64,000 bases of DNA from Chitinophagales bacterium (GCA_046329535.1 JAXLUN010000004.1:76443-140442); one strand, 5' to 3'; shown: positions 12,700 to 62,100, counted from the first letter of the stretch. The notes: a model not told the origin generated them from the letters alone. Program-made: numbers and translations.

Positions 12700-12711
12700 G
12701 AATGGGTGTTT

Positions 12712-13620
12712 TTAAAATCCTGCATTGGTTATCATCTCCCAAATGCTGAGTTTGATGTTGTCTATCAGAGATTCCTCTGCAAACAAGTCGGTATTCTTTA
12801 GTTCAGGCTTATGTTTTTTTAATACACTAAAGTATTTTTCATAAAAAGGGAAAAGCAGATTGTCATTACCTTTTACTATTTCGCGAATAGTCATACTGTT
12901 ATAATGAATAAACACAATTGGGAATACGCCATTAATGGTGGTAATTCCATTGTGTTGTTCCCTTCTGCATATTTCCATATTCCAGCCGGCAACGTTACAT
13001 CCTTTGTGTTTAATTATATGTGCCCCATCCTGTATAACCGGAATTAGGTCTAAGTATTTTTGGTCATCAAAAGTTCCACGCAATGAATTTTTTTCGCAGC
13101 GGTAAGCACAACAATCAGCCCACCAGTTTAAACTATCTGTTGCATCTTTATTTACTCCGATAAAGCCAGCATTATACAGGCCGACCCGAAAGTTGGCTTC
13201 TAACCAATTCTGATTTTTTTGGGGGTCGTGTTTGTAATGATGAGGCGTTAGTAGAAATGAATGCTTATCTAATAGATTGAAAAGAAATGTATAGTCTGAA
13301 TGAAAAGATAAATCATTATCCAGGTAAATTACTTTCACCGTATCTGGCTTTTCGAGCAGTTGGAGCAGAAAAACTGGTTTTAAACTCCAGCGTAGTTTGT
13401 TACTGTTTTTCCTGTATTTGCTAAGAATGATCTTTGTAGTTGTATTGGTGCTTAAATCCTGTAAACTGTAAAAAATACAATTAGGGTAAACGAAACTCTG
13501 ATTCGTATCTACTACTAAGACATGAAGCGAAAAATCGTGTTTTTGTTCTTTTAATGAATCTGCAAGTGCGTGTACCTTGTAAAGGTGACTTTGAGTAGTA
13601 ATGGTACAGAAGTGATTCAC
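12712..13620 (-). CDS. Putative GT-A-fold glycosyltransferase (nucleotide-diphospho-sugar transferase)
   Basis: 302 aa with the DxD motif YLDNDL after a beta-strand-like VIYLDND. It sits 12 nt upstream of the TMTC-like gene. Confidence 0.5.
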   Translation of the reverse strand: MNHFCTITTQSHLYKVHALADSLKEQKHDFSLHVLVVDTNQSFVYPNCIFYSLQDLSTNTTTKIILSKYRKNSNKLRWSLKPVFLLQLLEKPDTVKVIYLDNDLSFHSDYTFLFNLLDKHSFLLTPHHYKHDPQKNQNWLEANFRVGLYNAGFIGVNKDATDSLNWWADCCAYRCEKNSLRGTFDDQKYLDLIPVIQDGAHIIKHKGCNVAGWNMEICRREQHNGITTINGVFPIVFIHYNSMTIREIVKGNDNLLFPFYEKYFSVLKKHKPELKNTDLFAEESLIDNIKLSIWEMITNAGF

Positions 13621-13729
13621 AATGTGACCAAATTAAAAACTTATTTGTGTTCGGGTAATAATTTTGCGAAGTTCATATTTGGAAATATTATTTTAAGTAT
13701 CCTTTACATTAGTTCAACTATTATTGGGG

Positions 13730-15340: not shown

Positions 15341-15343
15341 GTT

Positions 15344-43600: not shown

Positions 43601-44438
43601 CCGATCAGATACTGCTACATTTAGTATTGATATTTTTAACGTCCCCAACATTAATACAAACCCTGCCGATACTTTTGCCTGCAGCGCAATACTTACACAA
43701 CTTTCGGTTGATACCGGCACAGTAAATTCAACCTATGTATGGAATATAGCGTGTCATAGTCAGCATACGCAGGTTACTACTTACAATGGGGCCTTGCCTT
43801 TTTACGCAGAAGAGGCGGGGGAGTATGAAATTTTACTGTATGCCTACAATAACAATCATCCGGCCTGTTTAGCTAAAGCGGATAGTTTTAGTGTAACGGT
43901 ATACGAATCACCAATGGCATTCTTTACCGTAGACTTTCCCTATATCTCTCAATCTGAGTATGTGTTCCCTATTCATAATATGAGCACACCTAATACCAAT
44001 ACCTATATATGGAACTTTGGAGATAATACCTACAGTAATGAGGTTAATCCGGAAGCACATGCTTATACGGCATTTGGATATTACGATATCGTATTAACCG
44101 CCCGAAATGGCCCTTGTGAAGATACTGCATTGTCACAGGTTTTTGCAGATCCCTACCTGCAGTTATTTATACCGAATGTATTTACTCCCAACTCGGATGG
44201 GATAAATGATGTGTTTGAGATATACGGCAATAAGCAGGATATAGATTATTTACATGTGCGAGTTTACAATCGTATAGGCGAGAAAGTGTTTGATTCATAC
44301 AACCTGGAATTTAAGTGGGACGGAACCTATAAAAGTGAGCCTTTGGTTCAGGCAGTGTATGTATATACTGTTGAAATATCGGCTATTCATGATGCAGATA
44401 AACGGTTAGTAAAGGGAAGTATAACACTACTGCGGTAA
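40665..44438 (+). CDS. Large PKD-repeat surface protein with a T9SS type-B C-terminal domain
   Basis: 1257 aa with at least 5 PKD-like WxFGDG signatures (WWSFGDGT, NWGDGTT, YNFGDGS, TWFGDGAT, IWNFGDNT). The C-terminus is FIPNVFTPNSDGINDVFEIYG..VYNRIGEKVF..WDGTY..YVYTVEI..GSITLLR. Confidence 0.85.
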   Translation: MGANNTYTLLRRVKHGIVIWLCSMTGLVHGQLNPPWFVTQNPPPSSACGIVNPIISVVTPSPICYNRTVTIRLNYDIALDTIYLDFGDNKDITIVGASILPNTMDVTHVYTFTPADSCPSIAFGPPAISCIVKAYFFKRCGPSAYSYVSTTNNSMAFRFKPRVRFQTTNYLTNYVPGQNLLVACNTNCVQLDMSNCCTNTYIGTDSTDYWWSFGDGTPNDTFSNTPDGNFISPVHCYAHPSVSPAYYTIKLHAENECGVSEDWGKLYVQEIADVQVDPGPYCTGSAVGVHITASGGLGNPVYSTTVTPPGCSTIAGDSTANPQITFTCAGTFTINSAYGFCSETRTITVDQGVDMQQSPVPDDCYTGSNSINLAAYFFSSATTQSNHFSITDTAGAILFSATGSSVPSSSITLPHAGRYFVYDSSITTCNTVVFTDTFYLQPPLSIALPADTIVCLQTLFVLPNVPGAVRTLNGTPTTDTFYVYPAGVYTVTYTPISCGSSVSFTITTKGTESLVSDYTYCSSPGAIVLSGTQPNTLFSGPHISNDTLYGNAAGPGSHVFYSSYTAADGCIFLDTAQVQILSSINAGVTLPDTVCAGSPVTLSNIPAGLSTTTNWGDGTTDNNVTHTYNISGTMFLSIRFSDGTCDTTMTDTLLVIDAPASTFLLLPDTACSGDTVTIQFTPNTLYQQQWEYNGNTSLTPPVMVANNSSSAVICQTVTLSVSYPQCPTAVSSQPVCFYPATQAIADIDFDSVCSPLPVTIINNSIVGPGATYQWFKNGVLFSTTNAPLQQDTLNAYTTDTTYTYMLVVNSCGANDTVYQAVTVHPVNFTPVLYVSSLSPCRYDTILYWTSPITGCTANYNFGDGSAIQAGSADTISHIYTTEGNYAATVTMYCACKTKSDNLTIQVQPGPQLSVSDPVDTCKNQLVTINSSVTGTIAPGSYTTWFGDGATNIGSANPTHTYTQDGTYQGQMLVYGINGCRSDTATFSIDIFNVPNINTNPADTFACSAILTQLSVDTGTVNSTYVWNIACHSQHTQVTTYNGALPFYAEEAGEYEILLYAYNNNHPACLAKADSFSVTVYESPMAFFTVDFPYISQSEYVFPIHNMSTPNTNTYIWNFGDNTYSNEVNPEAHAYTAFGYYDIVLTARNGPCEDTALSQVFADPYLQLFIPNVFTPNSDGINDVFEIYGNKQDIDYLHVRVYNRIGEKVFDSYNLEFKWDGTYKSEPLVQAVYVYTVEISAIHDADKRLVKGSITLLR

Positions 44439-44546
44439 GTTTTATTCGTCTTTAACAAAAACAGTTGACTGAATCCATAAAATATAAATCACCCGTCAAG
44501 TTATTTGCCAGAAAGTATAATCATAAACTCAACAAATACTAACCCC

Positions 44547-45659
44547 ATGAAACAAAGTATCCTCCTGCTGCTCGCAATCAGTATGATGCAATCGGCATTT
44601 GCACAAGATTATCTCAAAACCAAAAAAGGCGATGAGGTTCCGGTAAAGATTATATCCGTAACCGATACCAAAGTAGAATATAAACCCTTCTACTATCAGG
44701 AAGGCGGTTCGCTGTTTTTCGATAAAAAAGACATACAGTCTATTAAGTATGCCGATGGCCGCCTGCTTAATTTCGATGCCCCTGTAGTTCCTGTTTCATC
44801 GGGTATAAATACATATAGCAGTAGTGCCCCCAGCACCTCATCGGCCGATGCGCTGAAAGGTTTAGAGAAGTTAACCGGCCAGATAACCGAACTAAACAAA
44901 GGCCAAACAGACCAAACAAAAGCACTAACGGAAACCTTAAATGCATTGAATGCTAATATTACATCGCTTAAAACGGCCATAGAGCAAGGCAACACCGAAA
45001 CTAAAAAGCAGAACGAAGAGGTGTCGTCTAAACTGAATTCCTTAAACAGTTCGGTCAAAGAGCTGAATGAAACCACACAAACCAAAAGTGGAGCAGAGGC
45101 CAATGCCATAGTGCCGCGCAAATTTGGTATGGGGGTAAGCTTTATTACCAACTATCTGTTAAATGCATTTAGTGATGATGAAGGGGCGCCTATCATCAAT
45201 CAATACAACGGTTTATTTATGGGTGCCGGGTTTAACCTGATAGTTTCCACACGGATGGATAAAAAGGTCGGTTTCAGATATGAACCGGAATTCAGTGTGG
45301 CATCATCATTCAGCCGAAGTAAAGATGGAAATGATATATCGGCTAATCGAATAAGTATATTCAGTTTTGGCTCCCGCTTTTTGGGTGTTGCCCGCAGAAA
45401 CCGTGTAAACATATACGCAGGTCCGTCCATAACTATTTTCGGAGTAGTGGCCTCTTTACGTGAAAATGAGTTGACAACAACCAGTGCTATGGTGGGTGCC
45501 GGTTTTGGTTTGCATTTTGGTGGTGAGTATCTGGTGCATCCCAATTTTGGTATTAACATGGAATCGGGTATGCAGTTGTATGGTTTGTTTCCCAAAGGGG
45601 GATATGCCGAGGGGGTATTTTCAACCTATGGTCGTTTAGGCGGCCGGTTCTACTTCTAA
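44547..45659 (+). CDS. Outer-membrane protein with an N-terminal domain, a coiled coil and a C-terminal beta-barrel
   Basis: Signal peptide MKQSILLLLAISMMQSAFAQ at the ATG at 44547. The middle has coiled-coil heptads (LTGQITELNKGQTDQTKALTETLNALNANITSLK). The C-terminal ~180 aa have an alternating beta pattern ending GRLGGRFYF. Confidence 0.6.
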   Translation: MKQSILLLLAISMMQSAFAQDYLKTKKGDEVPVKIISVTDTKVEYKPFYYQEGGSLFFDKKDIQSIKYADGRLLNFDAPVVPVSSGINTYSSSAPSTSSADALKGLEKLTGQITELNKGQTDQTKALTETLNALNANITSLKTAIEQGNTETKKQNEEVSSKLNSLNSSVKELNETTQTKSGAEANAIVPRKFGMGVSFITNYLLNAFSDDEGAPIINQYNGLFMGAGFNLIVSTRMDKKVGFRYEPEFSVASSFSRSKDGNDISANRISIFSFGSRFLGVARRNRVNIYAGPSITIFGVVASLRENELTTTSAMVGAGFGLHFGGEYLVHPNFGINMESGMQLYGLFPKGGYAEGVFSTYGRLGGRFYF

Positions 45660-45676
45660 AATCATTGTCAAACTTC

Positions 45677-47065
45677 ATGAGAATTTTTCATTTGGTAAGT
45701 GTTTGTTTAGCCAGCGTATGCTTCGCATGGGCTCAAACTCCTGCTGTTTGTATGTTTACTTTTCAGGAGTCTGGTACGGTAAAGAAGTATTCCTATACAA
45801 GAACTACCAATGCCCCCGATGCTAATCTGTTTATTACCGGTTATGTTGTAACCGATAACAGTTCTATACCATACAGAATATTTAAAATAACCAACAACAC
45901 CGCTAAAAGAGAATTATCTCTGCTCATTATTCAAGCCAAAACCGGCTTGGTAGAAGATGAATACAATTATACCTATTCCCCCTTCTCGGGCTTATTAATT
46001 AAAGACGGAGACGATTCGGTATCAAATATCAAGAAACCTGATTTATATCTTCTTTCTTTTGAGAACGAGCGGAAAGAGTATGTCTTTCTTCACTCCCTAA
46101 CACATATCGCTGATTACAGTGTTTTCTTTTCGCCTGTTTCCGATACTTTACAGAAAAGAAATAACGAGTTGCTGAAACAGAATGCATTTTTCAGGCAGGA
46201 GATGCAAAAGCAGGAAACTATTAGGGCCGAAGAAGAGAAACAGAAAAAAATAAAAGAGGAAGAAGAGAATAGGATAAATGCACTGGCAGAAGCCCGGGTA
46301 AAAAAAATTGTTGATTCATTAAGTACTCTAAACGCCCGGAATGAAACTGTTAAATCGCATACCCAGGATGATTCATTGCAAATGCACATTGAATTGTTTT
46401 ATCAGCAGTACTATAAGGATTCAATAGCTATTACGGAGATTAATCAATCTATCAATACAGAAATCCACGATAGATTCTATAACGTTAATGATGAAGATGT
46501 ACTAATTATCAGCAACGGTAGATTTATAGGCGATACCAAATCGGCCAATATGGAGGGGCATGGTATTTTGATTGTAGATAATAGAAGGGTTTATGTAGGT
46601 ACTTTTATCAAAAATCAATTTTTGGCCGGCAAGGTAAATCTGAAGTACGAACTTCCTTTAAAAGAGCAATACATTGGAGGTTGGGAAAGCGCCCGGCCAG
46701 AGGGTTTAGGTTGCTGGTTTTTTGCTAATGGAGATATAGAATTGGGCCATTTCGGTAATGGAGTTTTAATGCATGGTATTATACGTAAAACAGAGAGTAA
46801 TGGTAATTCCTATTTCGGTCATACAGACATATTAAAAAAGAATGGTTTTGGCTCCTATCAAACGGCCAACACTAGCAAGTATATAGGTATTTTCGCGAAT
46901 GATATTTTGCAAAATGGGTACATTATTCAGGTAGATGATGTAGGTTTAAGAACGTATTATAGAGTAAAGGGGGCAGTTAAATACGAAACGGATAAATCAA
47001 CGGTTTTGCAGTTCATTAAACTAGCAGAAAATATTGCAAGTAAGGCCGGTGGCCGAATAGATTAA
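45677..47065 (+). CDS. Secreted protein with an E/K-rich coiled coil and MORN-like repeats
   Basis: Signal peptide MRIFHLVSVCLASVCFAWAQ (ATG at 45677; the track start at 45665 is TTG). The MORN-like segment is YIGGWESARPEGLGCWFFANGDIELGHFGNGVLMHG. Confidence 0.55.
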   Translation: MRIFHLVSVCLASVCFAWAQTPAVCMFTFQESGTVKKYSYTRTTNAPDANLFITGYVVTDNSSIPYRIFKITNNTAKRELSLLIIQAKTGLVEDEYNYTYSPFSGLLIKDGDDSVSNIKKPDLYLLSFENERKEYVFLHSLTHIADYSVFFSPVSDTLQKRNNELLKQNAFFRQEMQKQETIRAEEEKQKKIKEEEENRINALAEARVKKIVDSLSTLNARNETVKSHTQDDSLQMHIELFYQQYYKDSIAITEINQSINTEIHDRFYNVNDEDVLIISNGRFIGDTKSANMEGHGILIVDNRRVYVGTFIKNQFLAGKVNLKYELPLKEQYIGGWESARPEGLGCWFFANGDIELGHFGNGVLMHGIIRKTESNGNSYFGHTDILKKNGFGSYQTANTSKYIGIFANDILQNGYIIQVDDVGLRTYYRVKGAVKYETDKSTVLQFIKLAENIASKAGGRID

Positions 47066-47843: not shown

Positions 47844-48569
47844 ATGGGTCAGAAAACAAGTCCAATATCTAATCGCCTCGGCATCGTTCGTGGATGGGAA
47901 AGTAACTGGTATGGCGGCAAAGATGCAGCTATGAAACTGGTGGAAGACGAAAAAATTCGTAAGTATTTAACTGCGCGCATCAACAAAGGAGGTATCTCTC
48001 ATATCATTATTGAGCGTACCATGAAACGTGTTACTGTAACAATACATACAAGCCGTCCGGGTATTATTATTGGCAGAGGAGGCACGGAGGTTGATCGTTT
48101 GAAAGAAGAGTTGAAAAAACTGACTGGAAAAGAGGTTCAGATAAACATAGTTGAAATTCGCAGACCGGAATTAGAGGCTGCTATTGTTGGTGAAACTGTT
48201 GCCAAACAGTTGGAGGCACGTATCAACTACCGCAGAGCGTTAAAGATGGCTATTGCATCAGCTATGCGTATGGGTGCTGAAGGAATAAAGATTCGTGTGA
48301 GCGGTCGTATTGGTGGAGCTGAAATGGCAAGAACTGAAGAATATAAGCAAGGAAGAACACCTCTTCATACTTGGAGAGCTGATATCGACTACGCTATATC
48401 TGAAGCACATACCGTTTATGGCAAAATTGGTATCAAGGTATGGGTTTGTAAGGGCGAGGTTTACGGTAAGAAAGACTTAACCGGAGCATTTGCTACTGAG
48501 CAAAAAGAGGAAAAACGTCAACCGAAAGGAAGAGTTACCGGTGGCACCAGACCAAGAAAAGAGAACTAA
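47844..48569 (+). CDS. rpsC: 30S ribosomal protein S3
   Basis: [25 protein letters not shown]..., with KH and S3-C domains; 241 aa. Confidence 0.95.
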
Positions 48570-48613
48570 GAGTAGAAAGTAATTTTAGATAAAGAGAGAA
48601 AACAAATTCAGTC

Positions 48614-49036
48614 ATGTTATTACCTAAGCGGACGAAATTCAGAAAAACCCAGAAAGGGAGAGTTGCTGAAACAACACAAAGAGGTCACGAGATCGCTTTC
48701 GGAACTTATGCTCTTAAATCATTAGAGAGCGGAAAGATAAGCAACAAACAAATTGAGGCAGCACGTGTGGCTTTTACCCGTTTCATGAAACGTGAAGGGA
48801 AAGTTTGGATTCGCATATTTCCGGATAAGCCAATTACCAAAAAGCCACTAGAGGTTCGTATGGGTAAAGGAAAGGGTAACCCGGAAGGTTGGGAAGCTCC
48901 TATTCAGGCTGGTAGAATTATTTTTGAAGTAGATGGCGTTTCACGCGAAGTAGCAGCAGAAGCCATGTTACTGGCAGCTCATAAAATGGGCGTAAAAACC
49001 AAATTTATCACCCGCAGAGATGCAGTGGAGGGATAG
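48614..49036 (+). CDS. rplP: 50S ribosomal protein L16
   Basis: [16 protein letters not shown]...; 140 aa. Confidence 0.95.
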
Positions 49037-49070
49037 GATAGTATTTTAACAAACAAGCTATAACCATATT

Positions 49071-49289
49071 ATGGGAGCAAATAAAAAATTGAATCAGGAA
49101 GACATTAAGCAGTTTGTAACGGAGGACTTAATTGCCAAAGTATCTGCAGATACTGCTGAATTGAAACGTCTGGAATTTAATCACGCGGTTACACCGCTTG
49201 ACAATCCGCTTAGCATTCGTGCCAAGAGAAGAGATGTGGCCAGATTGCGCACCGAATTGACAAAACGTAATAACGAGAAAAAAGCTTAA
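49071..49289 (+). CDS. rpmC: 50S ribosomal protein L29
   Basis: 72 aa with conserved operon position, and the motifs ELKRLEFNHA and IRAKRRDVARLRTEL. Confidence 0.9.
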   Translation: MGANKKLNQEDIKQFVTEDLIAKVSADTAELKRLEFNHAVTPLDNPLSIRAKRRDVARLRTELTKRNNEKKA

Positions 49290-49295
49290 TCAGCC

Positions 49296-49550
49296 ATGGA
49301 AAGAAATCTCAGAAAAGAAAGAATTGGTTTAGTAACCAGTGACAAAATGGATAAAACCATTACCGTTTCAATTGAAAGAAAGGTAAAGCACCCTATTTAT
49401 GGCAAGTTCGTGAAGACTACCAAAAGTTTCAAAGCACATGATGAAAAGAATGATGCTAAAGCCGGTGATACAGTAAAAATCAGTGAGACTCGTCCGCTTA
49501 GTAAGACTAAACGTTGGAGACTGGTAGAAGTGGTTGAGCGTGCTAAGTAA
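49296..49550 (+). CDS. rpsQ: 30S ribosomal protein S17
   Basis: [45 protein letters not shown]; 84 aa. Confidence 0.95.
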
Positions 49551-49597
49551 TCCTAATCGGGTCGCAGTTAATTTATATAAAACAGTAATTAAGTAAT

Positions 49598-49966
49598 ATG
49601 TTACAGCAAGAATCAAGAGCCAATGTGGCTGACAACAGCGGAGCAAAAGAAGTTTTGGTTATCCGTGTGTTAGGAGGAACCAGAAGAAGATATGCCAGCA
49701 TTGGTGACAAGGTAATTGTTGCTATTAAAAAGGCAATACCTACCGGAGGTGCTAAGAAAGGAACTGTTTCTACAGCTGTGGTGGTTAGAACCGCTAAGGC
49801 AATCAGAAGAAAGGATGGTTCATACATTCGTTTTGACGACAATGCAGTTGTGTTGTTAAATGCCCAGGATGAACCTAAAGGAACACGTATCTTCGGACCA
49901 GTTGCCCGTGAACTTCGTGATAAGCAGTTTATGAAAATTATTTCACTGGCTCCGGAAGTACTTTAA
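49598..49966 (+). CDS. rplN: 50S ribosomal protein L14
   Basis: [30 protein letters not shown]; 122 aa. Confidence 0.95.
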
Positions 49967-49998
49967 TTGATAACAGGATTTTAAGAAAATAAAGAATT

Positions 49999-50307
49999 AT
50001 GAAGTTTCATGTAAAAAAGAATGACGAAGTAATTATTATAGCAGGCGATGATAAAGGAAAGAAAGGCCGTATCATTGATGTAGATCGTCAGAAAGGGCGT
50101 GTGTTTGTAGATGGTGTTAATCTGAACAGTAAGCACACTAAGCCTAACGCAAAGAATCCTAATGGTGGTATTGTAAAAACGCCCGGCTCAATCAATATTT
50201 CCAATGTTCAGTTACTGTCAGATGGAAAACCAACCAGAATAGGACGTAAAGAGGAGAAGGGCAAAACGGTTCGTTTTTCTAAAAAGACCGGTAAGTCGTT
50301 AGACTAA
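49999..50307 (+). CDS. rplX: 50S ribosomal protein L24
   Basis: KOW motif VKKNDEVIIIAGDDKGKKGRI; 102 aa, in the conserved position after rplN. Confidence 0.9.
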   Translation: MKFHVKKNDEVIIIAGDDKGKKGRIIDVDRQKGRVFVDGVNLNSKHTKPNAKNPNGGIVKTPGSINISNVQLLSDGKPTRIGRKEEKGKTVRFSKKTGKSLD

Positions 50308-50862: not shown

Positions 50863-53800
50863 TTACTTGAGCAAGGTTACAGTGCCTTTGTATTTTCGGT
50901 TTTCACCATCTAAAAATGTAATGTTAGCTACATAGCTATAAACCCCGGGGTAGGCATCTTTGCCCTGATAGGTACCATCCCAGCCGATGGTGGTATTGTT
51001 AGAGTCGAACACCTTTTCGCCCCAGCGGTTAAATACCGTAAGCTTAAAGTAAACGGTATTGAGCGCGTAAACGGTAAACACATCGTTTTGCCCGTTGCCA
51101 TCGGGGGTAAACACGTTAGGAATAAACACTTGCTTATCGGCCAATACATTTACCTGTATTTCGCCAGAGGCTGAGCAGCCATTAGGGTCGGTTACCACTA
51201 CTTGATACTCCATGCTGTGAATAGCTGAGAAAGCCGGCATGGCACAGTCTGTACAGCTTAGATAAACAGCCGGGCTCCAGCTATAGGTATAGCTATTGTT
51301 GGCCGGAGTAATATTTACGTTTAAGCCTATTTCAGTGCCAAAGGGTATAGAGTCGAAACTGAGGCTGTTAAGGGTAATCTGGTCGGGTTCGGTCACTACT
51401 ACGGAATCGCTGGACTGGCAGTTGTTGGCATCGTTTACGGTGATGTTGTAGGTAGCCGCACCAACGTTTTGCAATGGTGCACCTGCACTGCCATTGCTCC
51501 AGTTAAAATTATAAGGTGGAACGCCCCCGGTAGCGGATACCTGTGCGCCTCCATCGGTATAACCAAAGCAGGTAGCGTTGGTTACGTTATCTACACTTAA
51601 AAGGAGCGGGGCTGGCGATTGCACGGTATAGGTAGCGCTGTCTAAGCATTGATTGGCATCGTATACCACCACACCATAGCTGCCGGCCGAAAGGGCAGAA
51701 GCGGTAGCTGTGTTTTGAACCGGTGTGGTGTTCCACACATACGAGTAGGATGGAGTGCCGCTGTTGGCAGTAACTGTAATGGCAGCATCGGCTGCGGCAA
51801 AACAGCTTTCATCGGTAGCATTAACCAGCGACAGCACCGGATTGGGGTTAACCGTAACCGTTAAGGTATTGCTGGTGTATTGGCAGCCGTTGGCATCTTG
51901 GCCGCTAAGGGTAAAGCTGCCCGACTGGGTAACGTTTATGTTATTGCCGGTAGCATTGTTGCTCCACAGGTAGCTAACGTAGGTAGAGTCGGAAGTTAAA
52001 TCGACATTGCCGCCTTGGCAGAACGCAAGCGGCCCTGCGGCACTGATAGTGGTAGGGGCAGGCGGGTTGTAAGTAACATTGATAGTGTTGCTGATATACT
52101 GACAGCCGGCTGCATCTACTGCGCCCATAAACCAGGCCCCCGGTTGCGATACGGTAACCGAGTTGGCCGTTGAATTATCGCTCCATAAATACGTAGCATA
52201 CACCGAGTCGGAGGTAAGGGTAACGCTGCCGCCCGCACATACAGGTATAGCACCCCCTGCGCTAATGGTAGTAGCAGCCGGAGGGTTTACGGTAACATTT
52301 ACCGTATCGGTAGCAAAGCAAGCACCGTTTATACCTACTAAAACATAAGGAGTGGTAACCGGTGCTGCAGTAGTATTGGTGTTGGTGTAAGTTGGGTTAG
52401 AAACGGTAGAGTCGGACAGGTGAAGCGAAGGCTGCCACAAGTAGGTAAAGCCCGCAGCGGGTGCGCTGCCTATTTGCACGGTGCCGCCCGAACAAACCGC
52501 TACATCGGGGCCGGCATTTGAAACCGGAGCAGCCGTAATGGTAAGGGTTTGGCTAACCTGAGGCGATACACAGCCTCCATCGGTTACATCGAGGGTAATG
52601 GTTTTATTGCCAAAGCCGCTCCACAGCACCTGATAAGGGCCCTGGCCGCTGCCGCTTTGAATAGTGCCGCCATTAAAGTTCCAGGTGTAGTTGGCGCTGG
52701 TAGGCGAGGTGCCGGTGTAGTTAACGGTTACCGGATTGTTTTCGCACACGGTATCGGGTAAAATAACAAACGACTGAGCGCCTCCGCCCAAGATAGTTAC
52801 ATCAATATTATCTACATCGGCACAGCCCCAGCGGTCGGTTACCACTACATTGTAGGTAGTGTTTACCACCGGATTAACCACATACGGGTTGGCGGTTGAG
52901 TTGCCGGGGTTCCAGGTATACACATAAGGGGCCGAACCCAGCAGGGTAGAAGCCGAAAAGCTGAGCGTGCTGCCGCCACAAACGGCCGTATCGTTAGGTA
53001 TAGTTAATTGCGGACAAAGGTTTACTTCAATTACCGATACACTTTGGGTATTGCAGGGGTAGTCGTTCCATTGGCCCGAAGAGTAGATTTGCGGACAATC
53101 TTCGCCATTGGCGCAGCGGTAGGCCTCGCTGCTTTGGCAGCCGCCCAACCAATCGGGAAAACTGCAACACGAAGAGTTCTGCCCGTTATTATTCGGCTCG
53201 CCCGGTGCCCAGTTCAGGTAGGTCATAGGGGTGCCATCCAGGGTTACCCAGGTGCCTTCATTGGCCTGGTCGGTGTAGCCCACCCACACAGCCTGATTGC
53301 CCGATATAATGCCCGCAGCATTGAGTGCCGCCACCACGGCTGCGTTTTCGGCAGCATCGTTAAACACTACCAGGTGCGCGCCCAATTGGCGGGCGGCAGT
53401 TTCGGCAGCATTGGCATCTTGCGAGGTAGGGTTTATAAAATATAAGCTGCATTGCTGGCCTTGCACCCCGCTCAGCTCGTTGTAACCCGCAGCGGCAAAG
53501 GCAGCGCGCAGGGCAAACAAATCGCAGCCCGGAGGGCCGGTGCACACCTGTGTGGTTACAGTGGCCGTAGCCGTAGCCTGGCAACTGTAGCGGTCGGTTA
53601 CTTGTACCTGATACGAGGTAGTAGCGCTGGGGGTAATATCAAGAATAGACGAGTTGCCTACGGTAGCGCCACCGGGCAGTTCGCTCCAGGTATAGCTGTA
53701 AGGTTGCGAGCCCAAAATAGTAGTAGCCGAAGCCTGTGTGTGGTAGCCCGAGCAAACCGGCAGGGCCGGAACCGTAGTGGTTATTTGCGGACAAAGGTTT

Positions 53801-54375
53801 ACTTCAATTACCGATACACTTTGCCTATCGCAAGGCAGGTCGTTCCAGTTTCCACCGCCATATATCTGCACACAATCCTCCCCGTATTGACAGCGCCATG
53901 CCTGGCTGCTTTGGCAACCGCCCAAGGCATCGGGAAAATTGCAACACGATGACCCCTGCCCGTTGTTGTTAGGCTCGCCCGATGACCAGTTAAGGTAGGT
54001 CATAGGCGTGCCGTCAAGCGTTACCCAGGTGCCTTCGCTGGCAGCATCGGTGTAGCCTATCCACACAGCCTGGTTGGCCGATATAATGCCCGCTGCATTA
54101 AGGGCCGCTACCACAGCCGTGTTTTCGGCTGCATCGTTAAACACCACCAGGTGGCCGCCCAGTTGCTGAGCCGCTACCTCGGCTACGTTGGCATCTTGCG
54201 AAGTAGGGTTAATAAAATACATACTGCACGGCTGACCCTGCACGCCCGTAAGCTCTATATAGCCCGCATTGGTATAGGCGGTTCTGATTGCCTGAATATT
54301 GCAACCCACGGGTTGTGCTACCCCTATAAAACCAGTAAAGACCAACAAACTCAGTAACAATAAGAGGTTTTTCAT
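50863..54375 (-). CDS. Secreted protein with two tandem C-type lectin-like domains, Ig-like/SprB repeats and a T9SS type-B C-terminal domain
   Basis: Signal peptide MKNLLLLLSLLVFTGFIGVAQ. The CTLD signature occurs twice: WIGYTD..EGTWVTLDGTPMTYLNW..GEPNNNGQ..GEDCVQIY..GNWNDLPC. SprB-type repeats are present (GTPSYSYVWN, GGVPPYNFNWSNG). The C-terminus is FIPNVFTPDGNGQNDVF..VFNRWGEKVF..WDGTYQGK..GVYSYV..GTVTLLK. Confidence 0.85.
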   Translation of the reverse strand: MKNLLLLLSLLVFTGFIGVAQPVGCNIQAIRTAYTNAGYIELTGVQGQPCSMYFINPTSQDANVAEVAAQQLGGHLVVFNDAAENTAVVAALNAAGIISANQAVWIGYTDAASEGTWVTLDGTPMTYLNWSSGEPNNNGQGSSCCNFPDALGGCQSSQAWRCQYGEDCVQIYGGGNWNDLPCDRQSVSVIEVNLCPQITTTVPALPVCSGYHTQASATTILGSQPYSYTWSELPGGATVGNSSILDITPSATTSYQVQVTDRYSCQATATATVTTQVCTGPPGCDLFALRAAFAAAGYNELSGVQGQQCSLYFINPTSQDANAAETAARQLGAHLVVFNDAAENAAVVAALNAAGIISGNQAVWVGYTDQANEGTWVTLDGTPMTYLNWAPGEPNNNGQNSSCCSFPDWLGGCQSSEAYRCANGEDCPQIYSSGQWNDYPCNTQSVSVIEVNLCPQLTIPNDTAVCGGSTLSFSASTLLGSAPYVYTWNPGNSTANPYVVNPVVNTTYNVVVTDRWGCADVDNIDVTILGGGAQSFVILPDTVCENNPVTVNYTGTSPTSANYTWNFNGGTIQSGSGQGPYQVLWSGFGNKTITLDVTDGGCVSPQVSQTLTITAAPVSNAGPDVAVCSGGTVQIGSAPAAGFTYLWQPSLHLSDSTVSNPTYTNTNTTAAPVTTPYVLVGINGACFATDTVNVTVNPPAATTISAGGAIPVCAGGSVTLTSDSVYATYLWSDNSTANSVTVSQPGAWFMGAVDAAGCQYISNTINVTYNPPAPTTISAAGPLAFCQGGNVDLTSDSTYVSYLWSNNATGNNINVTQSGSFTLSGQDANGCQYTSNTLTVTVNPNPVLSLVNATDESCFAAADAAITVTANSGTPSYSYVWNTTPVQNTATASALSAGSYGVVVYDANQCLDSATYTVQSPAPLLLSVDNVTNATCFGYTDGGAQVSATGGVPPYNFNWSNGSAGAPLQNVGAATYNITVNDANNCQSSDSVVVTEPDQITLNSLSFDSIPFGTEIGLNVNITPANNSYTYSWSPAVYLSCTDCAMPAFSAIHSMEYQVVVTDPNGCSASGEIQVNVLADKQVFIPNVFTPDGNGQNDVFTVYALNTVYFKLTVFNRWGEKVFDSNNTTIGWDGTYQGKDAYPGVYSYVANITFLDGENRKYKGTVTLLK
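53008..54303 (-). repeat. Intragenic tandem duplication (~780-bp period) of the CTLD-plus-linker module
   Basis: Residues ~25-196 and ~284-456 are near-identical. At DNA level, for example, GCGGACAAAGGTTTACTTCAATTACCGATACACTTTG occurs at both ~53010 and ~53790. Confidence 0.85.
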
Positions 54376-54486
54376 ATTACACTCATTTTATTTGCGTGCC
54401 AAAAGTATATTTTACAGGGGAAGAAAAAAGAACGAAAGGGTTAAAATATTAGCCGCTATGGTGCCGGATGGGGCGGGGTGTAAACA

Positions 54487-54516
54487 CATCGGGCGGCCCA
54501 TGCGGGCCGCCCGATG
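54487..54516 (-). terminator. GC-rich hairpin between two minus-strand genes (terminator/attenuator-like)
   Basis: CATCGGGCGGCCC (54487-54499) is the exact reverse complement of 54504-54516, with a 4-nt loop. There is no clear U-tract on the minus strand. Confidence 0.35.
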
Positions 54517-54535
54517 CTTTGGCAGGCGGTGGCTG

Positions 54536-55471
54536 CTAAAAAGTCAGCGAAAAATCGAGTTGGCTGATAGTGCCTTTGGGTATAGAGAAAGGTACCGCAG
54601 CCGTAATAAACCCGCTGGCAGTGCATTGCACCGTGTAGCTACCATAAGGCACACCCGTAATGCGGTAGATGCCTTCGCGATCGGTAAGGCCGGTGTCGCC
54701 TGTTTCTACCACGGTTATTGTTGCCCCGGCTATGGCTGTGGCATCGGCCTGGTTGGTTACGCTGCCGCGCAGCCCCGCAATGCCGGCCCCGCGAATGATG
54801 TAGAGGACTTTTTCCCACACAAATTGTTCGCGGAGTGCTTCATCGTTTCGAAAGGCGCGTTTCCCGTCTTTACAAAGCTGTATTATCTTATCGTATAAAG
54901 TATTGTTGGCTGTAATTTTAGCCTGTGTTTCCTGCTCACGCAGTTCTTCCTGATCTTGAAAATAGGAGAGAGCCAACTGAAAAGCGGCAGCTACATTGGT
55001 AAAGGTGGCGATAAAGACAGGCGGCATGTTGCCATTGGCTGTTAGCTGAGCGGTGTTATCGGTAAAAAACTGGATACCGCTTGCCATGAGGCCGGTGACG
55101 CTTTCCCAATCGAAGCCGGAAGCGGCCTGGTACTTTTTAGAGCCTGCTGCTTCGAGGGCAATTTTTTGCATGGCTCCTTTAAAGTCTTCGGCATCTTCAA
55201 TATAGCCTTTTAGCAGCTGCCAGGTATTGAGACATTTGGTTGCAGCGGTTTCGCATTCCAGCTTTATGGCTTTTACTACGGCTGCGCGGAAGTCTTCATC
55301 GGGCAGGGCTTCGGCTGCTGCCAGTTCGGTGAGGAGCGAGTTAAAATAGGGCAGGTCGTATTTAGGTTTAACGAGAGCGAGTTCGGGCTGTTTTCGAATG
55401 GCTGCCCGGATAACCATGCGGCCTGCCGAATAGAAGTCGGGCTGGCTGCAGTGATATTTTGCATCAGACAT
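54536..55471 (-). CDS. Hypothetical protein with a helical N-terminal ~225 aa and a C-terminal carboxypeptidase-regulatory-like beta-sandwich
   Basis: 311 aa. The C-terminal GSVTNQADATAIAGATITVVETGDTGLTDREGIYRITGVPYGSYTVQCTASGF fits the CarboxypepD_reg pattern. There is no signal peptide. Confidence 0.55.
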   Translation of the reverse strand: MSDAKYHCSQPDFYSAGRMVIRAAIRKQPELALVKPKYDLPYFNSLLTELAAAEALPDEDFRAAVVKAIKLECETAATKCLNTWQLLKGYIEDAEDFKGAMQKIALEAAGSKKYQAASGFDWESVTGLMASGIQFFTDNTAQLTANGNMPPVFIATFTNVAAAFQLALSYFQDQEELREQETQAKITANNTLYDKIIQLCKDGKRAFRNDEALREQFVWEKVLYIIRGAGIAGLRGSVTNQADATAIAGATITVVETGDTGLTDREGIYRITGVPYGSYTVQCTASGFITAAVPFSIPKGTISQLDFSLTF

Positions 55472-55930: not shown

Positions 55931-56181
55931 GGGGGAGTAACCTTAAGCCCTCAACGCATAACAACTTTACCTTGGCTTTATTAACTTGCAGTAATGAAGT
56001 GTAAAACAGTGGAGGCATGAAAAGAAAGGGCGCAAGTGGTATTTTGTCTTGTTGCGGGAAGGAAACGGGTTTACCATTTGAGTATTTAATATGGTTTGAT
56101 GAGTAGACAATAAGCTTTGATTAGTAGTTAATAATTGTTTTATTTTACAAAAGAGATTAAGCACACTAAAAACCACCTACT

Positions 56182-59100
56182 ATGAAACACAAAATTTACA
56201 TCCTGCTTTTGTTTTGTATTTACGTTTGTTTAGCAGTAACAACGAGGGCACAAAGTATTGCGCTTACCGGTGGTAACGTAATACAATATTGCGGAGCAAA
56301 TCGCGTAGTGTCATTTACTGTGGACGGTATGACGAGTAATAATATTAGCGGGAGTTTTTCTATGCTAGGAGGAACAAGTTCTCCGTTTTTGAACATTGTA
56401 AATATTACCAGTAGTAACCCCTCCGTAAATATAATAACGGGAACGTTAAACGCAACTACTGTAAGTTATACTTTGACTGTTGGAACCGGCAATACAGAAG
56501 TGATAGATTTGAATGTAGAAATAGAACCCGACTGCGAGATATTTGATTTGTATGTTTCGGGACAATATCATGGCTTTAACGGGGCGTATCCTATACAGCG
56601 AGGCATCTCTGCCCAGTTAGGAACCAACCCAACTACCGATTTTCCGGTTACTATCAATTTTCCGCTGTTGGCTGTATCAAGTACACCGGTTAGTGGTAGC
56701 CAATCAACCAGTTGCAATTTGGTTTGGGATAATACTAACCAAGCGTATAGGCGGACAATACGAATTGTAAATAATGGGGAGCCGATGAGTCTTACCGGAG
56801 CAGAAGTAAGGTTTGTAGAAAATTTTAGTTCCGGGCTGCTAAATATAACCAGTGTAACAAATCAATCAAACAGTGTTCTAACGGGAGCGTTGCCCGCCAT
56901 ACCGGCAAATCCTTTTTATGTAACGATTAGCGGCAATAATCTTTCATTGGCCATTGATAATACTGACGGAGACGCCAATGTTTGGGGGCAGGGTGAAGTT
57001 TTAACGATGATTGAGGTGATTGATGACTGCCCGGAATTTAACTCCCAAATACATGTTGAGTACAGATGCGGGGAAATGCCGAGCGGAAATTATTGCTACG
57101 GCTCAGTGCCGTTTACCTGCCAAGGAACAGGAAGTAATACACCAGTTATTAGCGCTACTCTCTCAGGATTTGACCCCGCCTTTACACCAGATTACTGCTA
57201 TGGTACGGGCAATTTGAATCATTTTATTTTACAGTTAACGAATACATCTGCCACTGCAACTGATGCGGCTTTGGTAAAAGTATTTTTTGCAAATACTGTT
57301 GGTTCTATGACGACATTTAATTTCAATACACTTGCAGTTACTTCAAGTTTGGGCGGTGCGATTGCACACAGTATTGTTACGAGTAGCGCGGGCGTTAGTG
57401 TTGAGTTTGCTGCAAATACATATTTGCACCAATACGAAGTCTATACTTTGACATGGGATGGTAGTATTGGTTGCCCGGTTGGTGCGAGTTGTACGGATAT
57501 ATCGAGCATGTACAGAAGATATGAGTATGAGTATGAAGGAGGTTGTGAATTGGATAATCAGTATAATAAAGGGCCTTACGCTTTCTTTGACCCGAATACA
57601 GTGAGTGTGTATATGGGTGGGTTGAGCGTGCCACCAGCTATTGGGCCTACCAGTTTAGTGCATACAGGAACACCAGGAACAGATGCCAATGAAGCTGTAT
57701 CTACCTATGAAGTAAATATACCTGCAAATGTACCTTATGCGTTATGGCCAGGCAATGGGAATAACCGAGCGTATATTTTGAACTTTACCCTTTGTGAAGA
57801 TATGGTGTTTGAAAACAACGTAGATTGGGGAGGCGGATTAGTTACGAGTTCTGCGGCTATCATTCCTGATGTTTCAGTAATGATACCAGGAGTAACAGGA
57901 TGGACAAGTTTAAATAATCTGCCCTCGGGAATTTCGGCCATGTTTCAATCTTATAGCGGGGGTAGCGGTATTACACTGACCCTGCCATTTGGTACTAGTA
58001 TAGGCGGAGTGACTGTAGATGAAGATTTTTTGAACGGATTGAGTTTTCAAATTCGAGTAAGGCCGCACTGCGGTTCGGGCAATCCTCAATGTGCATTAAG
58101 TGTTACAGCTTCTTATGTACCTGACCGGACATGCGCTACACCTTGTACTATACCGATAGGTTGTAGTATTAAAAGGGTAAACATACAGTGCCCAGGTTGT
58201 ATTATAAGTGGAATTTACAGCAACGTTATGTATGGAGAGCGATACAGTGGAGATTATGGATTGATTGATGACGATGATAATGGGCTGGCAGATTCTCAGG
58301 TTTCTGCTTTTACGTCTACCAACAACCAAGTACGAAGAAAGACGCTGATGTATGGCGACCGAGTAGAGCTTAATTATAACGGGGAGGTTAACCTGGGTTC
58401 AGGTTATTTTCCTTCTGTATCTGCAACTGCAAACACGTTAACTGCTTTTGGAAATTTGATGGCAGGGAGCCCAACCGAGCAAACTTACTACGCAGCAAAT
58501 CAGGCAAAGTTGGGCTTCAATTATGCGTATCTCAGGGTTTCTTTTTCGGACGGAGACCCTATACCGGGTGTTGGTAACCATTTTGCAGATTTGATGACTG
58601 CAAGTGACGGAGACGGGACGGACCCACATCTTCTACTTACCATACATGACGGCACGAATGATTATAATTTCAACCTAAGCACCACCAACTCCGGTATTAA
58701 CAACTTTATGTATCGGAATACAATTGCTGCCGGTTCTACTGGAGGGGAGGATGAATACTTGTATGATATTTCGGTGGCAACTCTAAATTCCATAGGTCCC
58801 GATGTTTTACCGACCGGTAATGGTGGTTTCAGATACCATGACGGTGTAACCATAGATGCTAAACTTATTTACAAGTTAGACAGGAATGTAGGGGTTAACA
58901 ACAACTTTCCTTACGGATTGGACGAAGGTATTTCTGTTGGCTGCTATGGTTCACTGCGGGCAGTTGATATTGACAACCCTACAGATTGGCCTGTAGACCG
59001 AAGATATATACAATGCTCAACACCTTTTACAAGCCAAACAGTTTTGACGGGAGCTTGTAATAATCCAAATACATTAAGCACATGTAACAACCCTGTAAAC

Positions 59101-62100
59101 ACCCCTTCGGGGCAGGTAATGTGGAACAATGATTGCGCGAATGTGCAATGGGGCTGTGTAGAGGGCGTAGAAAGGATAAATATTACCGGGTTCGATTTTG
59201 ATTTTGCAGATTTTGACCCGCCCGTAATGAGAACCTGCGGGGTGTATTTTAATGCGTTTACAAACCATAACAATGAAACGGAAGGAAAAGGAGATGTGTT
59301 AGAAATAGGTTTAGAAAACACCGCTTCATTGGCAAGAAATTTTTTTCCATTCGAGTATAGAAACTGGATGAGGAAGAGGGATTTTGATGTTACTACCATT
59401 GCTAATTCCTGCTCGTTGCAAACTTCTCCGATTTTTCTTTGGATGAAACTTGTAATGACTACCGGTATTCCGGTTAATAACTCACTGTATCAATACAATC
59501 TTCTTCAAAATTTTACAACTGTAGCGCAAAATTGCAACAGTAATAACAATACATTATTTGGCTTTACATACGCCAATGCGGATTTACAGGGTTCTAATAC
59601 CGGAGTCGGTATGCGTTCGCCAGATGATATGCAGTTGTGGCGAGACCAGTCTTTTTTTGTAACCACACCTTGTACTACTCAATGCACTACCGGCATTGAG
59701 TTTTGTGTACGACAGGAGAATGATTTTAATCCTGATGTAACTATCAGCGGCAATACAAGTACTTTCAGCACCACACCCAATATTGCAGAAGGATTGGAGC
59801 CCAATATTCAATTAGTGCCGGACGGTCCTGATACCGAGAACGGAGAATTGACGGCAGTTGGCAGCAATACCCGATTTCTGCTTTCTAATTTTTCTACACC
59901 CGCCACAGTTCATCCGGAGTTAGTATGGAGTCAGTATCTTACACCGACCAACCCAATCGGAGTTAATGGGACCATAGTGTATGAGCTTCAGGTTGAAAAC
60001 CAATCTCTACTTGGCGATGCTCCCAACCCGTGGGTGTCTATTCATTTGCCTTTGCTTTCAGGTAGTTCTTTTTGGACAGGGGGTAGTGTAGAAATAATTG
60101 AGCCGGTTGCTTCAAATACTACATTGACCCCTCCCGGTTGTGGAAGTAACGGAACTACTACGGTAAATGGTGTAGGAGGGTTTCCTGATTATGCAGTACA
60201 ACCGGTTAATAGTTTTACGGAGATTGCCAACCTGCAAATGGTTCAGGTACCTATACCCACTTCGACAAACAACGCAGATTTAATTTTTCAGATTCCGCCT
60301 CAGGCAGGGCATCCGTATGATGTATTGCGCAGAACTGCTTTAGGTGATGGAAACAACAACTGCCCTTACCGTAAAAGCAATATGCGTGTGCGTATTACTT
60401 TAAACTACGATTGTGACAGAGTAGCCGAAGTGTTAGCTCTTTCTGCGCCACAGCACGATGCATTACAACCCTCTGTTTTTGCAGGTTATGCCTGTGATAA
60501 CGATATGGTACCTACCACCAATCCGATTTTTGATAATTTCTATACGAGTAATGCACCGGCAATAAATAACCAGACGAACGTAGCTCAACTTTTTGCGCAG
60601 CAAAGCTGCGATTATATAACGAGAGATCCTTTGCCTTTTGCTTTGGTAGGTACGGTGGTAACGCATGCGCAGTCGCCAGTAACGGGAAGCCAAATAGAAA
60701 TTTGTAACACCGATTTAAGTTTTAGCTGGAGCAATACAGGTGTGGGCGGATTAACCGGTGTTTCATTAGATGTAAGTAATTTGCCTATGGGTGTTACTTT
60801 GCCAGATCCCGTTTATTTTACGGTTGGCGGGCAAACGTATCCTGTTTCAGATACACTTAATACTAACACATATGATTTAAGTGCACACCTTGCCTCTCTG
60901 CCTACTCCTATTTCCTTTGTGCCGCAGGGAGAAACAGTAACTGCCACTATACACTTAGCTGCCGGATGCCATGCAGCGTTAGATGGAGAGTCATTAATTT
61001 TTACACAATACAGTCAGCCGTATTGTTATCCTTTAAACCCTTTGAATTCTACGGCATTTCAGCAGGTAACTAGTTATACCATTAATAGTGAGCCGTTAAA
61101 TCTTACGGCCAATATGTTAACCGATTGCAGTAACCAAGTTGAGTTTACGGCCAGTGGAGGATGTGGTAGTATTTATGAATGGAGGGAAGGCGGTGTGTTG
61201 CTGGGAACCGGTAATCCATTTACTTTTATGTTTAGTAGTGCCGGATTGCATACCGTAACGTGTAATTCGGGTGATTGCTCAGCCACTGTTGATGTGGATG
61301 TTGTACCGACTTTAGATGTAACCGTTACTGTGCAGCATGAGGTATGCGGATTAGCGAATGGGGAAGTTGAAGTTAGCGTAGGTAACGGCACAGCGGATTA
61401 TACTTATGATTTAGGCGGAACCGGACTTACCACTAACCAGGCGAACCACACCTTTGCAAATTTAGGAGCACATTTGTACACGTTAACTGTGAATGATGTG
61501 AACGGTTGCAGTTTTACAACACAGGTAGATATTAAGAGCATTACTGATCCGGTTGTTACTATTACTAAAGAAGCATTTACCTGTAAAGGACTTATTGAGT
61601 TAACTGCCACACCCGGCTTTGACAGTTATGAATGGAGTACACATGAAACCGGTAGCAGTATAGGAGTAGGTGTTGATGGTAACTATGGTGTAACTGCTAA
61701 TATAGGCGGCTGTAGTGCAAGTGCAGATATAAATGTAAGTGTTATGCCTACTGCATTTACTTTTCAAGGGCAAACTTATAATCCTGTAATAATTGGAGCT
61801 AATATGGCTAGTGTAACGAGTTTGACTAATGATTTGATTGTTCCCGGAATATTACCAAGTATCTCTACCTCAAAAAATTTGGTTGTCTATGGTAAACTTG
61901 TAATAGACCAGAATTATTGGTTTGAGATGGACCACGTTTGGATGGGAGAGGGTGCAGTGATAGAAATAGCACCAAGCACTTTGTTTGACATAACACAAAC
62001 AGGAAGCCTTGCGGTAGATATAAGGTCTGTTGGAAGTTGTATGTGGAGAGGGATAAAAACAGGAAAACTTGATGCCATAAGAATTAGAAATTTACACATA

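Follow-up and report, generated by a model that had tools for sequence, protein, structure and literature searches.

The residues that ligate the Ca2+ ion at the sugar-binding site of animal C-type lectins are known from the structures of MBP and SP-D, and by the EPN rule of these lectins, mannose-type sugars are bound through their equatorial 3- and 4-hydroxy groups. Many proteins whose fold is that of a C-type lectin-like domain (CTLD) are not lectins. Among bacterial adhesins, RemA of Flavobacterium johnsoniae possesses a lectin domain of the SUEL/rhamnose-binding type, not of the C-type, SprB is several thousand residues long, and the adhesin of the gammaproteobacterium Marinomonas primoryensis is an RTX protein exported by the type I pathway. 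RemA is called a "mobile cell surface lectin" in a work cited by PMC8481357. In the MpPA14 domain of the 1.5-MDa M. primoryensis adhesin, Ca2+ ligates vicinal hydroxy groups of several monosaccharides, and the domain serves bacterium-diatom and biofilm attachment (PMC8092209). Our literature search turned up neither experimental nor descriptive papers on canonical C-type lectins carried by type IX secretion system (T9SS) cargo proteins. Here, we analyze a gene in a 64,000-nucleotide stretch of DNA (GCA_046329535.1, JAXLUN010000004.1:76443-140442; the whole stretch is called the window) from an uncultured freshwater-type Chitinophagales bacterium. The gene product is a long surface-type protein with two C-type lectin domains, and, judging from its sequence and a structural model, it is likely to be a bivalent, Ca2+-dependent lectin adhesin on the cell surface.

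Fold and predicted Ca2+ site of the lectin modules

The gene encodes, in order, a signal peptide, two units each composed of a CTLD and an immunoglobulin (Ig)-like domain, a stalk of Ig-like, PKD, and SprB-repeat domains, and a T9SS type B C-terminal domain. The two lectin modules consist of 177 residues each and are offset by exactly 259 residues (777 nt). The first-pass annotation, which was made from the DNA alone, had described two modules of ~170 residues located ~260 residues apart, and these dimensions hold; its coordinates, 53008-54303, were given with no strand and correspond to residues 25-456 of a gene on the minus strand. The shared motifs are located at residues 105/364 (W[IV]GYTD), 114/373 (EGTW), 133/392 (GEPNNNGQ), 165/424 (GEDC), and 177/436 (WND) in modules 1/2. 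All the motifs listed in that annotation are present twice, except that module 2 reads WVGYTD, not WIGYTD.

Pfam Lectin_C (PF00059) matches the protein in three stretches with an E value of 7.7e-30 and a score of 104.2 bits (curated cutoff, 22.6). When all PDB sequences are searched with module 1 using phmmer, the matches are exclusively to C-type carbohydrate-recognition domains (CRDs) of animals, the best single-domain matches being SP-D, MBP, collectin-11, SRCL, and DC-SIGN (E values from 1e-12 to 1e-8). The AlphaFold2 model of module 1 (residues 20-199), built on a 29-sequence alignment, has a mean predicted local distance difference test score (pLDDT) of 85.9 and a predicted template modeling score of 0.82. 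In this model, the CRD has an N-terminal extension, a confidently predicted helix at model residues 8-17. When the model is compared with the PDB using Foldseek, the top ranks are occupied by CL-K1, SP-D, SRCL, conglutinin, CD23, ASGPR, and MBP-C. The template modeling score against MBP-C is 0.90 when normalized to the target, with a root-mean-square deviation of 2.2 Å. The top 50 entries are all animal Lectin_C-type CTLDs, and nearly all of them are sugar-binding CRDs. The modules are true Lectin_C domains with a lectin-type CTLD fold. An FGE, intimin, or Mtd-type CLec fold is rejected by the Pfam search, the PDB sequence search, and Foldseek, where none of these folds appears in the top 50.

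The PF00059 search and the structural model had both been suggested in the first-pass annotation as checks of its assignment, and both support it: the Pfam match is strong, and the model matches the Ca2+-dependent CRDs of SP-D, CL-K1, SRCL, and MBP-C. The contrary case that it named, a non-lectin CTLD-like fold without Ca2+ ligands, is seen neither in the Foldseek top 50 nor in the alignment of the ligand residues with SP-D.

In the alignment of module 1 with SP-D, 'nwssgEPNnngq' corresponds to 'nwapgEPNddgg', and 'gEDCvqiygggnWNDlpC' corresponds to 'sEDCveiftngkWNDvaC'. The five residues predicted to ligate Ca2+ at the primary site (E134, N136, E166, N178, and D179) are all aligned with their SP-D counterparts, and module 2 has the same residues at positions shifted by +259. 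This residue-level alignment indicates that all five primary ligands and the C2-C3 pair of Cys residues have counterparts in collectins. In a conservation alignment of 48 modules from 29 proteins, where the mean column conservation is 0.70, E134, P135, E166, W177, N178, and D179 are invariant (48/48), and N136 is conserved in 47 modules. The predicted primary Ca2+ site is complete and conserved in both modules at the sequence and fold levels, and the EPN and WND motifs, which had been reported as intact, are near-invariant and align with the Ca2+ site of SP-D.

At the counterparts of the auxiliary Ca2+ site of collectins, the window protein has D110, E114, N137, and D167. In 31 of the 48 aligned modules, the block reads D110/E114/D167, and in the other 17 it reads R110/(S,A,Q)114/Q167. 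The latter modules all come from the ortholog loci L015 to L028, with one or two modules per protein. Such co-variation would be expected of a real metal site that was lost as a unit by one clade with the primary site kept.

The segment between N136 and E166 consists of 29 residues, as opposed to 5 in the SP-D alignment, and the extra 24 residues carry four Cys (C144, C145, C154, and C162 in module 1). This loop comprises 21-28 residues and has exactly four Cys in 47 of the 48 modules, and its sequence varies between clades. In ~600 CTLD modules from the nearest 287 relatives, the distance from EPN to WND is usually 15-24 residues, compared with 40 in the T9SS subfamily, and distances of at least 30 residues with at least three Cys are found almost only in this subfamily. 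In ASGPR and other animal lectins, the loop equivalent to the insertion shapes specificity. By analogy with them, the likeliest role of the 4-Cys loop beside the sugar site is that of an extended subsite. The loop is the only poorly defined part of the AlphaFold2 model (pLDDT, ~50).

The equivalents of C2 and C3, C168 and C182, are found in 47 of the 48 modules. C25 and C50 in the N-terminal helix and C195 are conserved across the aligned modules and may substitute for the missing C1-C4 bridge. Each 259-residue unit possesses 12 Cys residues, a number compatible with six disulfide bonds. Neither the 4-Cys insertion, nor the loss of the C1-C4 disulfide bond, nor the missing adjacent PorP/SprF gene described below had been mentioned in the earlier annotation.

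CTLDs that bind non-sugar targets usually lose EPN/QPD and WND, whereas the five ligands are kept here in 47-48 of the 48 modules despite ~50% divergence elsewhere, and every one of the closest structures solved is a sugar-binding collectin or receptor. It is thus quite unlikely that the C-type lectin fold of this protein binds a non-sugar target such as a protein, a mineral, or an ice surface, with the EPN/WND residues holding only a structural Ca2+ ion, even though many animal CTLDs do bind non-sugar targets, the canonical C1-C4 disulfide bond is missing, and the poorly modeled insertion beside the site could alter the function.

Export, anchoring, and proposed function

The signal peptide, MKNLLLLLSLLVFTGFIGVA, is probably cleaved before Gln21. 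It was read by eye from the sequence, and the 'AQ' junction is found, in the part shown, in 22 of the 33 listed ortholog N-termini; in the other 11, the start is mis-called or the junction lies beyond the part shown. The Gln21 junction fits cleavage ahead of Gln, which we take to be the 'Q-rule' of Bacteroidetes. At the opposite end, PF13585 CHU_C matches residues 1084-1168 over profile positions 2-86 of 86 with 61.7 bits (cutoff, 27), and TIGR04131 (T9SS type B sorting domain) matches residues 1085-1169 with 47.1 bits (cutoff, 35). Both scores exceed the curated cutoffs, in agreement with the previous description of the protein as a T9SS type B cargo. Two further type B cargo genes are located in the window at 3-3395 (+) and 40665-44438 (+), which suggests that the organism uses the type B pathway. 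The former gene encodes 11 SprB repeats and CHU_C, and the latter encodes PKD domains and CHU_C/TIGR04131. The open reading frames (ORFs) 44505-45659 and 45665-47065, located after the second cargo gene where PorP/SprF and PorE genes usually lie, give no family match. By gene context, the lectin gene is an orphan type B substrate.

Type B proteins bind PorP/SprF-like outer-membrane proteins for surface anchorage and stay cell-associated in the cases studied (PMC9143113). Adjacency of the genes for a type B substrate and its shuttle is frequent but not obligatory, and three of the 12 type B substrates in F. johnsoniae are orphans, which have one shuttle in common and are sent to the gliding machinery (PMC12618676). 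Both observations argue against a soluble agglutinin or scavenging lectin that is exported by T9SS and shed into the medium, not anchored to the cell, and so does the position of the binding head at the distal tip of a long stalk of Ig/SprB repeats, which appears to be the usual layout of an anchored adhesin. Shedding is unlikely in our view, though it would accord with the finding that no cognate anchoring gene of the PorP/SprF or PorE-like type adjoins the lectin gene, and with the report that where a protein ends up is set by its C-terminal domain, the exchange of which can free an adhesin into the medium (PMC12618676).

A surface Ca2+-dependent lectin adhesin, as the first-pass annotation had already proposed, is the best-supported reading because the PF00059 match, the fold match, the conserved EPN/E/WND ligands, and the type B sorting domain all point to it. 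By analogy with animal lectins, its specificity is most likely for mannose-type sugars. Several points weigh on the other side. The literature search gave no study of binding, Ca2+ dependence, secretion, or localization for this protein or its relatives. Family scans of the window ORFs tested recognized no gene for PorP/SprF, PorE, or core T9SS components. The canonical C1-C4 disulfide bond is absent, and the C1 and C4 residues of SP-D are aligned with Ala and Ile, respectively. The 4-Cys loop, where the model is unreliable, could occlude or remodel the sugar site. The ligand and the ecological target are pure inference.

As an adhesin, the protein would be exported by the Sec pathway via its N-terminal signal peptide, pass the outer membrane by T9SS through the type B C-terminal domain, and stay at the surface through an outer-membrane partner of the PorP/SprF type whose gene lies elsewhere in the genome. 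In sugars of the mannose, glucose, GlcNAc, or fucose type, the bound Ca2+ ion would ligate the equatorial 3- and 4-hydroxy groups, as in animal C-type lectins, and the 24-residue 4-Cys loop, as the extended subsite, would probably set oligosaccharide specificity. Avidity would come from the two heads, the number of which ranges from one to four in relatives. The ligand would most likely be located on algae, cyanobacteria, other bacteria, or the matrix, as a polysaccharide or a glycoconjugate, or be the exopolysaccharide of the bacterium itself. Since the protein is an orphan type B substrate without an adjacent PorP/SprF or PorE gene, the gliding machinery might, more speculatively, carry it as a mobile adhesin, in place of static anchoring.

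A wider proposal, which we consider doubtful though less so than shedding, is that these proteins constitute a distinct branch of bacterial C-type lectins, where the disulfide-knotted 4-Cys loop forms an extended glycan surface with specificity unlike that of animal CRDs. Such a protein would be an orphan mobile lectin on the gliding machinery, and the number of CTLD-Ig copies (one to four) would tune the avidity with which uncultured Chitinophagales of freshwater and sludge attach to surface polysaccharides of phytoplankton, cyanobacteria, or bacteria.

If the modules bind sugars, Ca2+-dependent recognition of the animal EPN/WND type would also work on bacterial gliding/T9SS adhesins, and the protein would provide a molecular handle on the attachment of abundant uncultured Chitinophagales to algae, cyanobacteria, flocs, and the biofilm matrix. 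The 4-Cys loop, and the disappearance of the predicted auxiliary Ca2+ site in one clade, are natural experiments on how specificity is tuned on the C-type lectin scaffold. The domain annotation is already made by standard pipelines and relatives are already labeled 'lectin-like protein', and the importance is considered to be moderate.

Family, module duplication, and gene neighborhood

The exact protein is not on record in the public gene index. A scan of GTDB with one genome per species gives 33 loci (numbered with the prefix L), all in metagenome-assembled genomes (MAGs) and mostly labeled Chitinophagales, 'Chitinophaga', or Bacteroidetes, with the best match being 75-76% identical. The names of the MAGs suggest lake, membrane-bioreactor, and soil sources. 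An exhaustive search of 1.84 billion representatives with phmmer gives 114 proteins at E ≤ 1e-30. The seven best relatives that were checked all possess SprB repeats and CHU_C (7/7). Pfam Lectin_C is found in six of them, with one to four independently passing stretches in five and a whole-protein match only in P0145, while the module in the seventh, P0146, is matched in the phmmer search only. The CTLD-Ig unit occurs once in L019-L028, twice in L001-L013 and L015-L018, three times in L014, and at least four times in P0139 and P0141. In L014 (CANGXE010000045.1, 5842-8718), the first module is degenerate, with EPS for EPN, no 4-Cys loop, and loss of C2/C3. Directly downstream of the ortholog at L018 (CAZIZP010000021.1), an ORF of 1298 residues at 11644-15540 has the N-terminus '...AAQSTTCNI', which resembles the start of a lectin module, and its C-terminus is matched by the other CHU_C protein of the window. 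Judging from these sequence features, this ORF may be a tandem paralog. The lectin head of the window protein is 72-76% identical to those of the closest orthologs, compared with ~32% in the stalk, and selection thus appears to be concentrated on the head.

Modules 1 and 2 share 78% identity in protein and, in DNA, 81% over a 300-nt core and 76% over the full 531-nt module. From the similarity of the DNA copies, the first-pass annotation had proposed a recent duplication. In a neighbor-joining tree, however, module 1 of the window protein clusters with module 1, and module 2 with module 2, of L001-L008 and L012, that is, modules at the same position group together with those of at least nine other species. 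This grouping suggests that the duplication predates the split of at least 10 species-level lineages. At four-fold degenerate sites, the uncorrected difference between the two copies is 42%, as compared with 43-66% between orthologous modules, and the remaining DNA similarity is therefore likely to be imposed mostly by protein conservation. Judging from the module tree and the four-fold sites, the duplication is old, and a recent duplication or gene conversion is rejected.

The other explanation for similar copies on a C-type lectin fold is a diversity-generating retroelement (DGR), with a template and a variable repeat and a CLec-fold target, and the literature on prokaryotic 'C-type lectins' is indeed dominated by DGR targets. 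Mismatches between the copies are spread across all 12 substitution types with no adenine bias, which removes this explanation. Hypermutation of this type is also rejected because no reverse transcriptase is found among the window ORFs scanned, both repeats are coding and conserved in position in the orthologs, and the domain is of the canonical Lectin_C type, not of the Mtd/FGE type. Recent duplication, ongoing gene conversion, and a DGR are, taken together, extremely improbable as the origin of the copy similarity, the 81%-identical DNA core notwithstanding.

The positions of the features are listed in the table. The lectin domains are distal, and ~9 Ig-like/PKD/SprB-repeat domains constitute the stalk. 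Pfam matches to PKD_4 and SprB repeats (PF13573; 53.8 bits against a cutoff of 28, in three stretches) are found in the stalk, where Cys spacing and Y-x-W motifs are also seen. As for the identity of the Ig-like domains, PF19081 ('Ig-like domain CHU_C associated') matches the segment that comes right after the first CTLD in the relatives P0139 and P0141.

Positions of the lectin gene, its domains and predicted sites, and nearby elements, numbered from the first nucleotide of the window
Feature	Position	Strand	Residues	Basis or remark
Whole gene	50863-54375	minus	1170 residues	ORF; Pfam Lectin_C, SprB, CHU_C; TIGR04131
Signal peptide	54316-54375	minus	1-20	MKNLLLLLSLLVFTGFIGVA; sequence inspection
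C-type lectin module 1	53785-54315	minus	21-197	N-terminal helix extension (25-50) included; module hidden Markov model (HMM), AlphaFold2 model, Foldseek
EPN of module 1	53968-53976	minus	E134, P135, N136	Aligned to EPN of SP-D
24-residue 4-Cys insertion of module 1	53884-53955	minus	141-164	GSSCCNFPDALGGCQSSQAWRCQY; gap versus SP-D in phmmer alignment
Third predicted primary-site Ca2+ ligand of module 1, in GEDC	53878-53880	minus	E166	Aligned to Glu of EDC in SP-D
WND of module 1	53839-53847	minus	W177, N178, D179	Aligned to WND of SP-D
Ig-like linker domain 1	53539-53784	minus	198-279	Weak Pfam matches (K319L-like PKD, Big_9)
C-type lectin module 2	53008-53538	minus	280-456	Module HMM, motifs, identity with module 1 (78%)
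EPN of module 2	53191-53199	minus		
4-Cys insertion of module 2	53107-53178	minus		
Predicted Ca2+ ligand of module 2	53101-53103	minus	E425	
WND of module 2	53062-53070	minus		
Ig-like linker domain 2	52756-53007	minus	457-540	Repeat unit runs past CTLD
Stalk	51127-52755	minus	541-1083	~7 Ig-like/PKD/SprB-repeat domains, ~75-85 residues each, Cys pair in each
T9SS type B C-terminal sorting domain	50866-51126	minus	1084-1170	PF13585 CHU_C, TIGR04131
Promoter-like box	54400-54407	minus		TACTTTTG; ~25 nt upstream of ATG; resembles TAnnTTTG
G+C-rich hairpin	54487-54516	minus		CATCGGGCGGCCC-GCAT-GGGCCGCCCGATG; perfect; after upstream 311-residue gene; read from sequence

The promoter-like box matches TAnnTTTG, presumably the Bacteroidetes -7 promoter consensus, and the hairpin suggests that the lectin gene may be a transcription unit of its own. 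The gene in front of the hairpin, at 54536-55471 (-), encodes 311 residues with no signal peptide; it is G+C-rich and has a C-terminal CarboxypepD_reg domain, and its N-terminal ~230 residues have no family match. The downstream neighbor is a convergent gene for a GNAT acetyltransferase, and the other neighbors include genes for ribosomal proteins, the CarboxypepD_reg protein, and a giant ORF.

No conserved neighborhood is found when 10 window neighbors are compared with the 33 ortholog loci by tblastn, which gives only matches to paralogs of the stalk or C-terminal domain. Nine ortholog loci share no downstream gene, as judged by the sizes and orientations of the ORFs alone. The flanks of the orthologs differ from genome to genome. 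A G+C-rich island at 51400-55400 (0.51-0.56 in a background of 0.36-0.43) spans most of the lectin gene and the upstream 311-residue gene. The G+C content at third codon positions is 0.56 in the lectin gene, 0.53 in the upstream gene, and 0.30-0.44 in neighboring genes, and the orthologs are G+C-enriched over their own flanks by 0.02 to 0.07. The enrichment and the differing neighborhood in every genome suggest that the lectin gene may have moved laterally among Chitinophagales.

Some other features of the window are described here. At 47844-50307, a ribosomal-protein fragment runs in the order S3-L16-L29-S17-L14-L24, lacking L22 on its upstream side and L5-S14-S8 on its downstream side, where these usually lie; it is preceded by a C92 amidase gene on the minus strand and followed by the GNAT gene and the lectin gene. 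Either the S10/spc operon is split here, or the fragment results from an assembly join. An ORF of more than 2600 residues at 56170-63999 (+) has a signal-peptide-like N-terminus and runs off the end of the window; it gives one sub-threshold PKD_4 match and no NCBIfam match. A scan of the whole 64-kb window with Rfam gives no family at the gathering score, that is, no tRNA, riboswitch, or ribosomal-protein leader.

Comparison with known systems

The modules of the window protein and the animal CRDs (SP-D, MBP-A/C, CL-K1/collectin-11, SRCL, and DC-SIGN) have ~25-27% identity and have PF00059, the fold, the EPN...E...WND site, and the predicted C2-C3 disulfide bond (C168-C182) in common. In contrast to the animal CRDs, the modules possess the 24-residue 4-Cys insertion, Ala/Ile in place of C1/C4, an additional helix at the N-terminus that bears C25 and C50, and the conserved C195. 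Valency would be attained by tandem repeats on one chain, whereas collectins use a trimeric coiled-coil neck. Unlike the animal proteins, the window protein is bacterial and bears a T9SS type B sorting domain. Its variant features within a known kind include the 4-Cys loop, the absence of the C1-C4 bridge, and CTLD-Ig units repeated in tandem on a T9SS stalk.

The closest relatives outside the T9SS subfamily are short bacterial CTLD proteins with a PEP-CTERM signal (PF00059 and PF07589), which show 35-50% identity and have intact EPN/WND. They differ from the window protein in that they are single-domain proteins of ~180 residues with no 4-Cys insertion, no N-terminal extension, and a PEP-CTERM/exosortase signal. 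The few whose source is named come from MAGs of Planctomycetaceae and Verrucomicrobia and are uncharacterized. CTLDs had been called uncommon in bacteria in the initial annotation, but this was an overstatement. A profile search with a limit of E ≤ 1e-6 gives at least 529 protein clusters, most of them of ~180 residues and often PEP-CTERM-anchored, and the clusters are taken as bacterial because PEP-CTERM anchors mark them. NCBI names some of the short bacterial CTLDs 'C-type lectin domain-containing protein' and the Chitinophagales relatives 'lectin-like protein'.

SprB and the orphan type B adhesins Fjoh_1123 as well as Fjoh_1720 and Fjoh_4934 of F. johnsoniae have SprB repeats (PF13573) and the type B domain in common with the window protein, and the lectin gene, like those orphans, has no adjacent PorP/SprF or PorE gene (PMC12618676). 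The window protein is much smaller than SprB (1170 residues) and has a recognizable ligand-binding head with no counterpart in SprB. It is not an ortholog of SprB. With MpPA14, a further functional precedent besides RemA, the window protein shares the concept of a long repeat adhesin whose distal end bears a Ca2+-dependent sugar module, while the PA14 fold is unrelated.

RemA, like the window protein, is a T9SS-secreted surface adhesin of Bacteroidota that is rich in repeats and bears a lectin domain of eukaryote type. RemA belongs to the type A domain substrates (PMC12618676), whereas the window protein is of type B and gives no Pfam match to a SUEL/rhamnose-binding domain, and no relationship between the two sequences was detected; assignment as a RemA-like adhesin is rejected on these grounds. 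As a functional analogue only, RemA is the closest precedent for a lectin adhesin on the T9SS/gliding system.

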